Shown piece after piece: positions 53,198 through 58,162 of a stretch of 64,000 nucleotides of DNA (position 1 is the first letter of the stretch; every line of letters starts with the position of its first letter). The translations under genes and the position numbers were made by a program. The stretch is taken from NCBI RefSeq assembly GCF_003334815.1, contig NZ_QOWO01000010.1; one strand, 5' to 3'. The notes under the pieces are model-generated. The model was not told where the DNA came from and did no database searches. It worked only from the letters and a program-made list of their open reading frames with translations. The stretch is from Escherichia coli (GTDB lineage: Bacteria; Pseudomonadota; Gammaproteobacteria; Enterobacterales; Enterobacteriaceae).

Positions 53198-53608
53198 TCA
53201 CAAAATGGCGGTCGTCAATCGTGACGAACAGCACAAACGCCCTTTCTCATCGAAGATTTCAATCTGCCAGACCTGGTGACGCGAACCGAGATGCAACGGT
53301 TTGCATACGCCGCGCACCCGCCCTTCTCGTGCCGAGCGGACGTGGTTAGCATTGATTTCCAGACCAACCACTTTTTGCTCACCTTCGGTACATAAATAAC
53401 CGGCAACGGAACCGATACTTTCGGCCAGTACCACGGATGCTCCTCCATGCAGCAACCCGAAAGGCTGCTTTGTCCGCGAGTCTACTGGCATTGTCGCTTC
53501 AAGGGTGTCATCACCAATATGTTCAAAGCGAATATCCAGGAACCCCACCATGTTTCCTTCACCCATAGCATTCAGTGCTTCCAGGGTGATTTTCCGTTTC
53601 CATATCAT
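53198..53608 (-). CDS. menI: 1,4-dihydroxy-2-naphthoyl-CoA hydrolase (hotdog thioesterase)
   Basis: 136-aa ORF recognised as YdiI/MenI. Confidence 0.93.
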   Translation of the reverse strand: MIWKRKITLEALNAMGEGNMVGFLDIRFEHIGDDTLEATMPVDSRTKQPFGLLHGGASVVLAESIGSVAGYLCTEGEQKVVGLEINANHVRSAREGRVRGVCKPLHLGSRHQVWQIEIFDEKGRLCCSSRLTTAIL

Positions 53609-56600
53609 TTAATAATCTCCAGTAAAGCCTGCACAGGATGGCGTACCCCCGTGCCTTCAACCCGTTTTACCTGGCTACGGCAGGAATATCCGGTCGCCAG
53701 ACAGCGGTTACGCGGCAGTCGCTGCATAGCCTGATGCCAGGATAACTCATAGATCCCGAGCGAATTTTCATGGTTTTTCGCTTCATGTCCGTAAGTCCCT
53801 GCCATGCCGCAGCAACCCACGCTGACATTTTCCAGTTTCGCGCCAAAACGGGCAAATATCGCGGCCCATTGTGCTGGCGCACCCGGCAAGGCGGTAACTT
53901 CGGTACAGTGACCAAAGAAATACCATGATTCACCGCTGACTGTAGCCACTGGCTGTGACTCAAGTGCGCTTGCCAGCCATTCATTCGCCAGTAAGACGTT
54001 AAACTCGCCACGCTCCTCGCCCAGCGCCAGTTTATATTCATCGCGATAACAAAGTACCAGCGCCGGATCGACGCCCACCATTGGCATACCCAGCTTCGCC
54101 ATACGGTTGAGGAAATCCGCCGTCTTTTTCGCCGTCTTCGCAAAACGATTAAGAAAACCTTTAATATGCTGGGCTTTGCCATTTGGCGAAAATGGCAGTA
54201 ACACAGGCTGGAAACCTAATTTTTCGACCAGACGGACAAAATCCGCCACCACTTGCGCATCGTAATAGCTGGTAAAGGGGTCCTGCACCACCAACACTGT
54301 GCGCGCTTTCTGCTCTGCATTGAGAGATTCAAGCTGTTCCAGCGTCATGTTTGCCGAGCGATGCCCCACCATTTGTTGTTGTAGCGAGGGGACCGACAGC
54401 AGCGGCAAATCAACCATGCCGATATGTTTTTCCGAGAGTTTGCGCACCAGCGGCTGGTTAATGAAGAAGTTAAAGGTTTTCGGCGCGCGTGCCATCAGCG
54501 GCGCGTAGCTCTCGACCGTAGCGACGAGGTGGTCGCGCAGCGGGCGTAAATAACGGGTGTGATAGAGCTGCAGAAAACGAGAGCGAAACTCCGGCACATC
54601 AATTTTGATGGGGCACTGGGTCGAACACGCTTTACAGGCCAGACAGCCCGACATCGCCTCTTTGACTTCGTGTGAGAAGTCATATTCGCCTTTATTCGCA
54701 TGCCAGCTATTGCGCGTGCGGGCAATTAACGTCCGCAAACTGACGCCGGATTCAGGCAGTTCTTGTTCCAGTTTGAGTGGATCAACGCCGCGATCCGCCA
54801 ACAAACGCAGCCATTCACGCACCAGCGTTGCGCGCCCTTTCGGTGAATGAATCCGGTTCTGGGTGATCTTCATCGACGGACACATCGGACTACGGGCATC
54901 AAAGTTGAAGCATAAACCGTTGCCGTTACACTCCATCGCACCGCGCCACTGCTGGCGTACCGCAATGGGGATCTGCCGATCGAATGTACCGCGCTTCACC
55001 GCGTCCACTTTCATCATCGGCGCATCGAGACCTTCTGGCGGGCAAATCTTCCCTGGGTTGAGTCGGTTATGCGGGTCAAATGCCGCTTTCACTTTGCGCA
55101 GTTCTGCAAAAAGTTCCTCACCGAAAAACGCCGGGCTGTATTCAGCGCGAAAACCTTTGCCGTGCTCGCCCCACAACAAACCACCGTATTTCGCAGTCAG
55201 CGCCACCACGTCATCAGAGATTTGCTTCATCAAAATCTCTTGTTGAGGATCGCACATATCCAGCGCTGGACGGACGTGCAAGACACCTGCGTCGACGTGA
55301 CCGAACATACCGTAGCTTAAGCCGTGGCTGTCGAGCAGCGCGCGAAATTCAGCAATATAATCCGCCAGGTGTTCCGGCGGTACGCAGGTATCCTCAGCAA
55401 ACGGAATTGGCTTAGCGGCACCTTTGGCATTGCCAAGCAGACCAACGGCTTTTTTGCGCATTGCATAGATACGTTCAACCCCCGCCAGCTCACGGCACAC
55501 CTGCCAGCCGATGACACCTGCTTGATGACTGGCGATCAGCTCATCCAACCGCGCACAGAGTGCATTTACCCGCTCATCAATCAGCGCCTCATCATCACCA
55601 GCAAATTCCACAATGTTCAGCCCGAGCATCTCTTGGTCAGGCACATCGGTAATCAACTCGCTGACGGAATGCCAGACAATATCTTCCCGCGCCAGATTCA
55701 GCACTTTTGAGTCCACCGTCTCTACCGAAAGCGCCCGCGCCTCAACCATAAACGGCGCGTTACGCAGCGCAGAGTCAAAAGAGTCATATTTGACGTTCAC
55801 CAGACGGCGCACTTTAGGCAAGCGTGTAATATCCAGCCGCGCTTCGGTAATAAAGGCCAGCGTCCCTTCTGAACCCGTCAGAATGCGCGTCAGGTCGAAC
55901 TCGGTCATCTCATCGTTAAAGACATGACGCAGATCGTAACCGGTAAGAAAGCGGTTAAGTTTGGGGAAGTTGTCGATAATTAACTGGCGTTGCTGACGGC
56001 AACGTTGATAAACCGTGTTATAAATTCGCCCGATTGTGGTATTGGATTTACCCAGCGTTTCCGCCAATTCGACGGGTAAAGGTTGCGTATCGAGAATATC
56101 GCCCCCCAACAACACCGCGCGTACGCCAAGTACGTGATCTGACGTTTTGCCATAGACCAGCGATCCCTGACCGGATGCATCGGTATTGATCATCCCACCG
56201 AGCGTTGCCCGGTTGCTGGTCGAAAGTTCCGGCGCAAAAAAGTAGCCGAACGGTTTCAGGTACTGATTGAGTTGATCTTTTATCACCCCGGCCTCAACGC
56301 GCACCCAGCCCTCTTCAGGGTTAATTTCGATGATGCGGTTCATATGGCGGGACATATCAACAATAATCCCCTGGTTGAGCGCCTGACCGTTAGTGCCGGT
56401 GCCGCCGCCGCGGGGGGTAAAGATCAGCGATGAATAGCGTTCCTGCGCGGCAAGACGGGCGATCAGCGCCACATCTGCGGTTGAACGCGGAAATACCACC
56501 GCATCGGGGAGAAGTTGGTAAATACTGTTGTCGGTCGACATTGTCAGACGATCGGCATAACTTGTCGCCGTATCGCCGGTAAAACCTTGTTGCTCCAGCT

Positions 56601-56661
56601 CTTGCAAAAAATTAAGCACCAGTTGAACGACGCCGGGTGCCTGGGAAATCTGTGGAATCAT
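53605..56661 (-). CDS. ydiJ: FAD-linked oxidoreductase with Fe-S domain (D-2-hydroxyglutarate dehydrogenase)
   Basis: 1018-aa ORF with FAD-binding domain and C-terminal cysteine clusters; 4-nt overlap with menI. Confidence 0.93.
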   Translation of the reverse strand: MIPQISQAPGVVQLVLNFLQELEQQGFTGDTATSYADRLTMSTDNSIYQLLPDAVVFPRSTADVALIARLAAQERYSSLIFTPRGGGTGTNGQALNQGIIVDMSRHMNRIIEINPEEGWVRVEAGVIKDQLNQYLKPFGYFFAPELSTSNRATLGGMINTDASGQGSLVYGKTSDHVLGVRAVLLGGDILDTQPLPVELAETLGKSNTTIGRIYNTVYQRCRQQRQLIIDNFPKLNRFLTGYDLRHVFNDEMTEFDLTRILTGSEGTLAFITEARLDITRLPKVRRLVNVKYDSFDSALRNAPFMVEARALSVETVDSKVLNLAREDIVWHSVSELITDVPDQEMLGLNIVEFAGDDEALIDERVNALCARLDELIASHQAGVIGWQVCRELAGVERIYAMRKKAVGLLGNAKGAAKPIPFAEDTCVPPEHLADYIAEFRALLDSHGLSYGMFGHVDAGVLHVRPALDMCDPQQEILMKQISDDVVALTAKYGGLLWGEHGKGFRAEYSPAFFGEELFAELRKVKAAFDPHNRLNPGKICPPEGLDAPMMKVDAVKRGTFDRQIPIAVRQQWRGAMECNGNGLCFNFDARSPMCPSMKITQNRIHSPKGRATLVREWLRLLADRGVDPLKLEQELPESGVSLRTLIARTRNSWHANKGEYDFSHEVKEAMSGCLACKACSTQCPIKIDVPEFRSRFLQLYHTRYLRPLRDHLVATVESYAPLMARAPKTFNFFINQPLVRKLSEKHIGMVDLPLLSVPSLQQQMVGHRSANMTLEQLESLNAEQKARTVLVVQDPFTSYYDAQVVADFVRLVEKLGFQPVLLPFSPNGKAQHIKGFLNRFAKTAKKTADFLNRMAKLGMPMVGVDPALVLCYRDEYKLALGEERGEFNVLLANEWLASALESQPVATVSGESWYFFGHCTEVTALPGAPAQWAAIFARFGAKLENVSVGCCGMAGTYGHEAKNHENSLGIYELSWHQAMQRLPRNRCLATGYSCRSQVKRVEGTGVRHPVQALLEIIK

Positions 56662-56744
56662 TATATTGACCCTTTCCTGCGGTCTGTGATGTAGGTCGAT
56701 ACACTATTCTTTCAGGCTGCTGCAATAGCGCACTGAAAGGTGAT

Positions 56745-56875
56745 GTTTGTTTACTCTATGGATTTCGTGTTGCAGGAAGGCGGCAAGCGAGTGAACTCCA
56801 GGAGCTTACAATAGTAAGTGACTGGGGTGAACGAACGTAGCCGCAGCACATGCAACTTGAAATACGACGAGTAAA
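56745..56875. repeat. ERIC / IRU intergenic repeat element
   Basis: contains the ERIC core gcaagcgagtgaa.tccaggagcttaca.tagtaagtgactggggtgaacgaacg (the two ERIC primer sites as an imperfect palindrome), in the ydiJ-ydiK intergenic region. Confidence 0.85.
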
Positions 56876-57049
56876 TCGTTTGCGTGTTGCCTGAGTTGTT
56901 GTACCACATTTTTTTCTAACACGCCCATCAGAATTAAGGGCAGAATCGGCCTGTTAAAAACCGCTGAAATTGCTCATCATTATGCAGGTGAGTTTCGCGT
57001 GTTCACGTCGCGTCGACGATTTGACGCACAAAAAAGGTGAAAAGTAGTT

Positions 57050-58162
57050 ATGGTAAATGTTCGTCAGCCCAGGGATGTCGCACAAATTCTGCTTTCGGTG
57101 CTGTTTTTAGCCATCATGATTGTGGCATGTCTGTGGATTGTTCAACCCTTTATTCTCGGCTTTGCATGGGCCGGTACGGTGGTTATCGCCACCTGGCCGG
57201 TATTGTTACGTTTGCAAAAGATCATGTTTGGCCGCCGCTCTCTCGCCGTTCTGGTGATGACGCTGTTATTAGTGATGGTGTTTATCATCCCTATTGCTTT
57301 GCTGGTTAACAGTATCGTCGACGGCAGCGGCCCGCTAATTAAAGCCATTTCCAGCGGTGACATGACGTTACCCGATCTGGCGTGGCTTAATACCATTCCG
57401 GTGATTGGCGCGAAGCTGTATGCAGGCTGGCACAACTTGCTGGATATGGGGGGGACGGCGATCATGGCGAAAGTCCGCCCTTATATTGGCACCACCACCA
57501 CCTGGTTCGTTGGGCAGGCGGCGCATATCGGGCGCTTTATGGTGCATTGTGCGCTGATGCTTCTCTTCAGTGCCCTGCTGTACTGGCGCGGTGAACAGGT
57601 GGCACAAGGCATTCGCCATTTTGCAACCCGTCTGGCAGGCGTTCGCGGAGATGCCGCCGTGCTGCTGGCGGCACAGGCTATCCGCGCGGTGGCGCTGGGT
57701 GTGGTGGTGACGGCGTTAGTACAGGCAGTGCTTGGCGGTATCGGCCTCGCCGTATCCGGCGTACCTTATGCAACGTTGCTAACGGTGTTAATGATCCTCT
57801 CCTGCCTTGTCCAGCTTGGCCCGTTGCCGGTACTGATTCCGGCGATTATCTGGCTCTACTGGACTGGCGATACCACCTGGGGAACGGTATTGTTAGTGTG
57901 GAGCGGTGTGGTTGGCACGCTGGATAACGTCATCCGCCCAATGTTAATTCGCATGGGTGCCGATTTACCGCTGATCCTGATTCTCTCTGGCGTTATTGGT
58001 GGTTTGATTGCTTTCGGGATGATCGGTCTGTTTATTGGTCCGGTTCTGTTAGCCGTTTCCTGGCGTCTGTTTGCCGCGTGGGTGGAAGAAGTCCCGCCGC
58101 CGACGGACCAACCGGAAGAAATTCTCGAAGAACTTGGCGAAATCGAGAAACCGAATAAGTAA
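57050..58162 (+). CDS. ydiK: inner membrane protein, AI-2E/UPF0118 transporter family
   Basis: 370-aa multi-TM ORF recognised as YdiK. Confidence 0.92.
   Translation: MVNVRQPRDVAQILLSVLFLAIMIVACLWIVQPFILGFAWAGTVVIATWPVLLRLQKIMFGRRSLAVLVMTLLLVMVFIIPIALLVNSIVDGSGPLIKAISSGDMTLPDLAWLNTIPVIGAKLYAGWHNLLDMGGTAIMAKVRPYIGTTTTWFVGQAAHIGRFMVHCALMLLFSALLYWRGEQVAQGIRHFATRLAGVRGDAAVLLAAQAIRAVALGVVVTALVQAVLGGIGLAVSGVPYATLLTVLMILSCLVQLGPLPVLIPAIIWLYWTGDTTWGTVLLVWSGVVGTLDNVIRPMLIRMGADLPLILILSGVIGGLIAFGMIGLFIGPVLLAVSWRLFAAWVEEVPPPTDQPEEILEELGEIEKPNK

Follow-up and report, generated by a model that had tools for sequence, protein, structure and literature searches.

The DNA analysed here is a 64,000-nucleotide stretch of the Escherichia coli contig NZ_QOWO01000010.1 (assembly GCF_003334815.1), which we refer to as the window. 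Two divergent genes flank a 388-bp spacer in it: ydiJ, annotated as D-2-hydroxyglutarate dehydrogenase (53605-56661, minus strand), and ydiK, annotated as an AI-2E family transporter (57050-58162, plus strand). The ydiJ dehydrogenase is SerA-coupled. The spacer is 100% identical to that of MG1655, and adding 1712024 to a window coordinate gives the coordinate in NC_000913.3. Downstream of ydiK lies the gene of the small RNA RprA (58348-58455; full-length Rfam match, 118.5 bits). The part of the spacer that concerns us is a full-length ERIC (IRU/RU-1) element of 126 bp at 56750-56875, in consensus orientation on the plus strand, where RefSeq carries no ERIC annotation.

We identified the element with a profile made from 109 non-identical copies, which were found in public metagenome contigs by an exact 17-mer of the ERIC core, then oriented and aligned to give a 127-position consensus (TATACCCTAAATAATTCGAGTTGCAGGAAGGCGGCAAGTGAGTGAATCCCCAGGAGCTTACTTAAGTAAGTGACTGGGGTGAGCGAGCGCAGCCAACGCACATGCAGCTTGAAGGATGACGGGTATA). 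An nhmmer search of both strands of the 64-kb window returned a match at 56751-56873 on the plus strand (envelope 56750-56875, 104.5 bits, E=8.2e-32) that covers positions 2-125 of the 127 in the model. There was no second ERIC at E<0.01 in the window on either strand. The copy aligns well with the ERIC consensus, as 102 of the 127 columns are identical in a global alignment (80%). A sequence-only reading had placed the element at 56745-56875; its right end is exact, but its left end lies five bases too far out.

The central part of the element (56791-56833, plus strand) is the ERIC core, an imperfect palindrome (GTGAACTCCAGGAGCTTACAATAGTAAGTGACTGGGGTGAACG) that forms the apex of a hairpin and contains the target of ERIC1R and ERIC2, the standard ERIC-PCR primers, whose sequences co-occur in 233 papers. 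The ERIC2 primer matches 20 of its 22 bases at 56812-56833 (two mismatches; zero such matches expected by chance), and a 21-base alignment of ERIC1R, taken as its reverse complement, has a single mismatch and a single gap. The exact 17-mer of the core is also present. At the ends, the 7-bp terminal inverted repeats match exactly, with TTTACTC at 56750-56756 on the left and GAGTAAA at 56869-56875 on the right, in agreement with the figure of about 7 bp given for ERIC by Delihas (2008, Table 1). The whole element folds into a single long hairpin, at -54.4 kcal/mol for the plus strand (z=-6.7) and -39.1 kcal/mol for the minus strand (z=-4.7). The core and central palindrome proposed from the letters alone are thus borne out by the primer matches, the hairpin, the profile match and the terminal repeats.

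The copy departs from a typical ERIC in two small ways. It has a 1-bp deletion in the core (GTGAA-CTCC versus GTGAATCCCC), and although the inner TA is kept at both ends (TACTC...GAGTA; at 56752-56753 on the left), the outer TA has degenerated to TT and AA. The family norm is TA|TA, and similarly degenerate ends occur in other copies, TTTA at the 5' end in six and TAAA at the 3' end in eight. Nothing essential differs. In its length, core palindrome, short terminal inverted repeats, whole-element hairpin, dispersed intergenic copies, and filled and empty orthologous sites, the element resembles the ERIC/IRU/RU-1 family throughout, and 56750-56875 is a genuine full-length ERIC and an ordinary member of that family.

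Like the rest of the family, this copy has many relatives. A 131-bp query found ERIC in all 5426 of 5426 complete E. coli genomes, at 2-18 places per genome with a median of 12; the cited literature catalogues 21 copies in K-12. Other E. coli sites, among them the ybhJ-ybhI and yeiS-preT spacers, carry full-length paralogues that are 85-87% identical, and this copy and the paralogues examined are all intergenic. With 2-18 places per genome and a length of 126 bp, which is too short to code for a transposase, the element is a non-autonomous dispersed repeat, as had been proposed. We know of no transposase for ERIC.

We also compared the folding of the two strands across the family. The strand in consensus orientation folds more stably in 105 of 107 copies, with a mean of -53 versus -42 kcal/mol. 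In RNA of this orientation, 15% of the pairs are G-U, and the other strand is weaker because these pairs turn into A-C mismatches there. This asymmetry hints that the structure of one strand is favoured family-wide. In the consensus structure, canonical pairs account for 93% of cells, and double-sided variants are seen in 10 of 20 pairs.

Rfam contains no ERIC family. We did observe two sub-threshold Rfam matches that span 56749-56914 of the window. The Vibrio antisense RNA V_AS5 (RF02818) aligns end to end at E=1.6e-5, with 36.9 bits against a gathering threshold of 96, and the Yersinia sRNA Ysr49 (RF02766) aligns end to end as well, at E=0.024, with 27.0 bits against a threshold of 95. The similarity suggests that both Rfam families were built on ERIC-containing transcripts.

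Mapped transcription starts place the element in the 5' leader of ydiJ. The SMRT-Cappable-seq data of Yan et al. (2018; Supplementary Data 2, NC_000913.3) give, on the reverse strand, a transcription start site (TSS) at 1768915 for the unit of b1687, b1686 and b1685 and one at 1768914 for b1687 and b1686, while b1688 (ydiK) has forward-strand starts at 1768976 and 1769011. In window coordinates, the ydiJ-menI-ydiH transcript starts at 56891/56890 on the minus strand, and the ydiK transcripts start at 56952 and 56987 on the plus strand. Because the ydiJ start lies at 56890/1 on the minus strand, the ERIC is inside the ydiJ leader, which is 230 nt long (56662-56891, minus strand). Both ydiK starts lie to the right of the element, so the ydiK mRNA does not contain it. 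The general statement in the sequence-only reading that such repeats are transcribed therefore holds for this copy, by way of the reverse-strand start at 1768914/5. The transcribed strand is the minus strand, which is the weaker-folding orientation. Counted from the start, a PurR-like box occupies +7 to +22 of the leader, the ERIC +17 to +142, and an additional segment, described below, +143 to +199, and the ATG is at +231. The predicted fold of the K-12 leader contains the ERIC hairpin plus a smaller hairpin in the additional segment. There were no entries for the ydiJ-ydiK region in the Cappable-seq 2016 supplements.

On the minus strand, TGGTACAAC occupies -15 to -7 relative to the ydiJ start (56898-56906), and an A-tract precedes it. 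The block TTGTTGTA(C/T)CACATTTTTTT is conserved across genera in the orthologous loci. We infer from the letters that TGGTACAAC is the extended -10 of the ydiJ promoter. A consensus scan called no sigma-70 promoter in the spacer, owing to a poor -35.

The right end of the ERIC runs into a candidate PurR operator, AGTAAATCGTTTGCGT, at 56870-56885. This sequence matches 11 of the 14 specified positions of the PurR consensus ACGNAAACGTTTGCNT, a 16-bp palindrome, which is chance level when taken alone (15 such matches in the window versus 8.8 expected). The right terminal inverted repeat overlaps positions 1-6 of the box, and the ERIC terminus provides its first 4-6 bases. In E. coli strains without the insertion the same place reads GATTAATCGTTTGCGT, with 10 of 14 positions matching; the insertion therefore hardly alters the PurR match. 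The right half-site, CGTTTGCGT, is conserved in every genus examined, with AAACGATTGCGT in Raoultella. Cho et al. (2011) reported a PurR ChIP-chip region named ydiJ/ydiK at 1,766,545-1,767,225, for which no motif was called. We calibrated the offset of these older MG1655 coordinates (+1976) on the purR autoregulatory operator AGGTAAACGTTTGCCT, which lies at 25760-25775 of the window, and the peak then falls at 56497-57177, over the whole spacer. The candidate box may be the missing operator of this peak. If it is the PurR operator, ydiJ, with its SerA-coupled D-2-hydroxyglutarate dehydrogenase, would join the PurR regulon.

We examined how often the filled spacer occurs. The full 388-bp spacer is present in 4256 of the 5426 complete E. 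coli genomes (78%), and about 1168 genomes match only its right-hand 176 bp. The empty-allele spacer, found for example in an O25:H4 strain, is 213 bp long and thus 175 bp shorter. This difference exceeds one ERIC because a further segment at 56693-56749, directly left of the element, is missing as well. There are only two E. coli alleles, since the 4256 genomes with that segment are precisely those with the ERIC, and no third allele class appeared in a spread sample of ranked matches. A probe for the empty junction was left-weighted and matched all genomes, and serves only as a check on the proportion; full coverage was seen in 13 of 60 evenly spaced rows. The flanks of the filled and empty alleles are identical. 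The leader of the empty allele is 55 nt long and unstructured (-6 kcal/mol).

We then compared 80 orthologous ydiK loci, with one genome per species. Escherichia sp. MOD1-EC7003 and seven Citrobacter loci (six species names) also have a 213-bp spacer, and the junction in these loci can be aligned with that of the E. coli empty allele (CGGTCTGTG-(A/T)TG(A/T)GA..TTAATCGTTTGCGT). Because both the length and the junction agree, this sequence comparison shows the empty spacer to be the ancestral state. The filled state, with the same junctions and the same additional segment, is present in E. albertii, E. whittamii, Escherichia sp. E1V33 and a divergent species representative labelled E. coli. There is no ERIC in the spacer of Citrobacter, Salmonella arizonae/diarizonae and most other genera. 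The expectation that presence would vary between strains and species is thus confirmed: 4256 of 5426 E. coli are filled, as are E. albertii and E. whittamii, and Citrobacter and Salmonella arizonae/diarizonae have no ERIC. Removing the ERIC and the additional segment from the filled spacer leaves 214 bp, compared with the 213 bp of the empty allele; about five bases differ, and there is no clean TA duplication.

The additional segment (56693-56749, about 54-57 bp) is single-copy, accompanies the ERIC and is absent from the empty allele. Two copies of the 7-bp direct repeat GTGATGT, at 56686-56692 and 56740-56746, bracket it. It occurs at one place per genome and, within E. coli, only in the 4256 filled genomes; among all DNA compared, it was found at the ydiJ-ydiK locus only. 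With one place per genome and a single locus, it is not a dispersed repeat. Because it resembles the ends of reverse-oriented ERICs in Enterobacter genomosp. O and Raoultella, we considered whether the segment might be another ERIC, inverted and with an internal deletion. We rejected this, as profiles of the ERIC ends and four composite "deleted" profiles gave no match there even at E<=50. An origin from ERIC in general was rejected too, as Smith-Waterman alignments to the consensus, to the neighbouring ERIC and to the reverse-oriented ERIC of orthologous locus L051 were no better than those of dinucleotide shuffles (p=0.18-0.9).

A census with the ERIC profile across the 80 loci (477 kb) showed that the spacer has received such elements repeatedly. 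We counted eight independent insertion events, six of which lie in the ydiJ-ydiK spacer, which makes up 4.4% of the bases. With the spacer assumed to be about a quarter of the intergenic DNA sampled, a rough binomial test gives p of about 0.01 for six of eight events. The six are the Escherichia insertion, one in Enterobacter sp. JUb54 (+), one in Enterobacter genomosp. O (-), two in isolate 18061 (both +) and a long variant in C. amalonaticus S646. At least four enterobacterial lineages other than Escherichia therefore have independent ERICs in the spacer. In three of them, at loci L044 (+), L053 (+) and L051 (-), an ERIC sits at the E. coli point, directly left of the PurR-like box; further spacer ERICs away from that point are found in L053 and L023. 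In locus coordinates, the elements of the three other species lie at 2214-2338 (L044, +), 2204-2327 (L051, -) and 2091-2214 and 2331-2455 (L053, both +). The long variant of C. amalonaticus S646 (L023, around 2100-2450) is ERIC-like and about 200 bp in length. The L053 locus belongs to CACSKA010000003.1, a record titled Chryseobacterium sp. 18061. Its ydiJ-ydiK locus, which has two ERICs, is typical of enterobacteria, and either a wrong label or contamination of the record is probable.

ERICs are not the only inserts at this point. Unrelated inserts of 50-90 bp occur there in Salmonella, Kluyvera and Citrobacter sp. NCU1, and the one in Salmonella arizonae/diarizonae is 50 bp long and G+C-rich. 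Counting Raoultella as well, unrelated inserts of 50-160 bp lie at about 2100-2450 of the respective loci (L019 and L022, Salmonella arizonae/diarizonae; L028, Kluyvera; L012, Citrobacter sp. NCU1; L031, Raoultella). The insert point in the ydiJ leader is hypervariable, and the DNA on both sides is conserved. Since both ERIC orientations as well as unrelated inserts occur there, the site tolerates almost any insert.

We also asked how the inserted DNA varies. Within E. coli, in a comparison of K-12 with O157:H7 and two others, 8 of 183 inserted sites are variable, versus 0 of 205 in the ancestral spacer (Fisher p=0.002), and adjacent third-codon positions are variable at no more than 1%. Because all spacer substitutions within E. 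coli fall in the insert, it is the least constrained part of the spacer. The ancestral part of the spacer is conserved out to other genera. Between species, the same comparison is not significant (20 of 183 variable sites in the insert versus 13 of 205 in the ancestral spacer, p=0.14). The insert diverges there by 2-7%, compared with 10-24% at third-codon positions of ydiK, and the hairpin is stable in all 8 of 8 orthologues examined.

The divergence is unevenly distributed along the locus. A tract of low divergence at about 56500-57250 (versus loci L006, L008, L009 and L010) reaches into both coding regions and differs far less between Escherichia species than the coding DNA around it, and Escherichia sp. 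E1V33 is a mosaic in which near-identical blocks alternate with blocks of 7-10% divergence along ydiJ. Both patterns are consistent with homologous exchange of the spacer between Escherichia lineages, and such exchange would explain the identical flanks of the filled and empty E. coli alleles. The low divergence of the insert between species would be explained by constraint as well as by recombination.

Our preferred explanation, which we hold to be probable, is an ordinary ERIC insertion that became a passenger in the ydiJ leader and was spread by descent and recombination. A non-autonomous, MITE-like ERIC would have inserted in an Escherichia ancestor at a T/A-rich site that lies directly distal to the PurR-like box and 17 nt downstream of where ydiJ transcription starts. 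With the unrelated segment of about 54 bp added, the leader of ydiJ-menI-ydiH would have grown from 55 to 230 nt. The element is now co-transcribed, in its minus strand, as a long imperfect hairpin in the 5' UTR. The insertion would have spared the promoter, the start site and the ribosome-binding region, as well as most of the PurR-like box, and the ERIC would be a tolerated passenger that has little regulatory effect, if any. Its patchy occurrence, in 78% of E. coli, would reflect descent plus homologous recombination between Escherichia lineages, with no need for current mobility. We infer both the near-neutrality and the spread by recombination from the patterns of variation. In favour of a passenger, the inserted DNA is the only part of the spacer that varies within E. 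coli, both ERIC orientations and unrelated inserts occupy the same point in other lineages, and the strand that is transcribed is the weaker-folding one (-39 versus -54 kcal/mol). However, several observations sit less comfortably with it. The hairpin is stable in all eight orthologues, and the gap between insert divergence (2-7%) and divergence at ydiK third-codon positions (10-24%) fits constraint equally well. The six of eight ERIC events in this spacer could reflect selection or a target preference. A leader that was 55 nt long and unstructured (-6 kcal/mol) has become highly structured, and such changes often alter mRNA decay or translation in other systems. Finally, the junctions lack the clean TA duplication (214 versus 213 bp, with about five bases different).

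Some of these same observations are what one would expect if the ERIC had been co-opted as a cis-acting leader element, with its hairpin altering mRNA stability, as a substrate of RNase III or RNase E or as a protective structure, or altering translation. We regard this as unlikely, though it is the most serious alternative to a passenger. The ERIC does lie in a transcribed leader, which gained a hairpin of about -39 kcal/mol over its unstructured 55-nt ancestor; that hairpin is kept in all orthologues, with a between-species divergence below that of synonymous sites, and the leader acquired ERICs repeatedly. Reviews also describe Yersinia ERICs and Neisseria Correia elements as changing transcript levels through RNases. 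Co-option fits poorly, however, with an insert that is the only variable part of the spacer within E. coli, with the tolerance of both orientations and of unrelated inserts at the same point elsewhere, and with transcription in the weaker-folding orientation. Furthermore, the reviews describe a Yersinia mechanism that depends on an ERIC placed directly after a translated gene, unlike the arrangement here, and 22% of E. coli and most genera have no ERIC at this place. If co-option were true, expression of the D-2-hydroxyglutarate dehydrogenase operon would depend on whether a strain has the filled or the empty allele, which would make the polymorphism a functional one.

A more far-reaching version would make the first 20 or so nt of the ydiJ leader, just past the PurR-like box, a preferred landing site for ERIC across the Enterobacteriaceae. 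The hairpin would have been co-opted to tune the operon, and selection would have maintained or spread the 78%/22% split as a regulatory polymorphism with a function. We think this improbable.

The insertion could also act at the level of DNA: with a new left edge on the PurR-like operator and upstream DNA shifted 175 bp away, PurR repression or the activity of the ydiJ or ydiK promoters would be altered. PurR occupies the spacer in K-12 in vivo (Cho et al. 2011), the box lies at +7 to +22, and the ERIC end does provide box positions 1-6 (AGTAAATCGTTTGCGT in the filled and GATTAATCGTTTGCGT in the empty allele). However, by reading, the two alleles match the consensus nearly equally (11 versus 10 of 14), the well-conserved half-site and the central CG are untouched, and the DNA displaced to the left is ydiJ leader and coding region with no promoter DNA in it. 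The motif is moreover at chance level (15 versus 8.8 expected), and Cho et al. (2011) called none, so we consider such an effect very unlikely. Least credible of all is an independent small RNA, to which the end-to-end V_AS5 alignment (E=1.6e-5) and the Ysr49 match (E=0.024) might point, as both scores are far below their gathering thresholds (36.9 versus 96 and 27 versus 95 bits) and the similarity is to ERIC sequence, the data of Yan et al. (2018) have no start within or just upstream of the ERIC on either strand except that of ydiJ, and a scan found no terminator after it.

Returning to the ERIC as a probable passenger, we compared it with related systems. What sets it apart from the ERIC family is its place: the flanking genes are divergent, neither convergent nor co-oriented, and it lies within a 5' leader. 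The effect on mRNA stability mentioned in the sequence-only reading goes back to Yersinia studies. ERICs of Yersinia modulate mRNA when they lie downstream of a translated gene, where ribosomes unmask an RNase E site in the terminal repeat (De Gregorio 2005, as summarised in the reviews PMC2229807 and PMC10969869). What the two cases have in common is an RNA hairpin transcribed along with an adjacent gene, and in both it matters which way the element faces relative to transcription. However, the Yersinia elements are downstream of the translated gene, and the Yersinia mechanism is not directly transferable because the ydiJ ERIC lies upstream of the coding region. The Correia/NEMIS elements of Neisseria, such as the one in the mtrCDE leader (PMC10969869), are likewise MITE-like palindromes in a transcribed leader with a long double-stranded stem that is a potential RNase III substrate. 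They belong to an unrelated sequence family, though; promoters and IHF sites can be present in them, and Correia elements have been shown to be cleaved (PMC10969869). The REP/BIME repeats of E. coli resemble ERIC in being intergenic, palindromic, multi-copy and transcribed. REP units are G+C-rich, usually lie 3' of genes and are mobilised by a known RAYT transposase. They also measure 20-40 bp (PMC3733652), whereas ERIC is about 127 bp long and has a different consensus.

ERIC has been known since 1990-91, and ERIC-PCR typing rests on it. The family was reportedly the subject of papers by Sharples and Lloyd in 1990, Hulton et al. in 1991 and Wilson and Sharp in 2006. We found no paper naming ydiJ and ERIC together in the literature searched, and no coordinate match for this copy in the supplements of Petrillo (2008). 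The ERIC element itself is already known, and what is added here is its leader context, its adjacency to the PurR-like box, its population frequency and the recurrent targeting of the spacer. The significance beyond annotation is little. Work on the regulation of ydiJ and D-2-hydroxyglutarate, or on PurR, should take into account that the ydiJ leader has 230 nt in K-12, whereas roughly one E. coli in five, O25:H4 strains among them, has a leader of 55 nt. The pair of filled and empty alleles is also a natural experiment on the effect of a MITE hairpin in a 5' UTR.

Additionally, we observed ERIC copies on plasmids, at 41 places across the collection. One of them, in the 100-kb E. coli plasmid pHNAH212872-2 (L004, 2501-2632), is 86% identical and sits among the chromosomal-type genes dinB, yafP, prfH and pepD.
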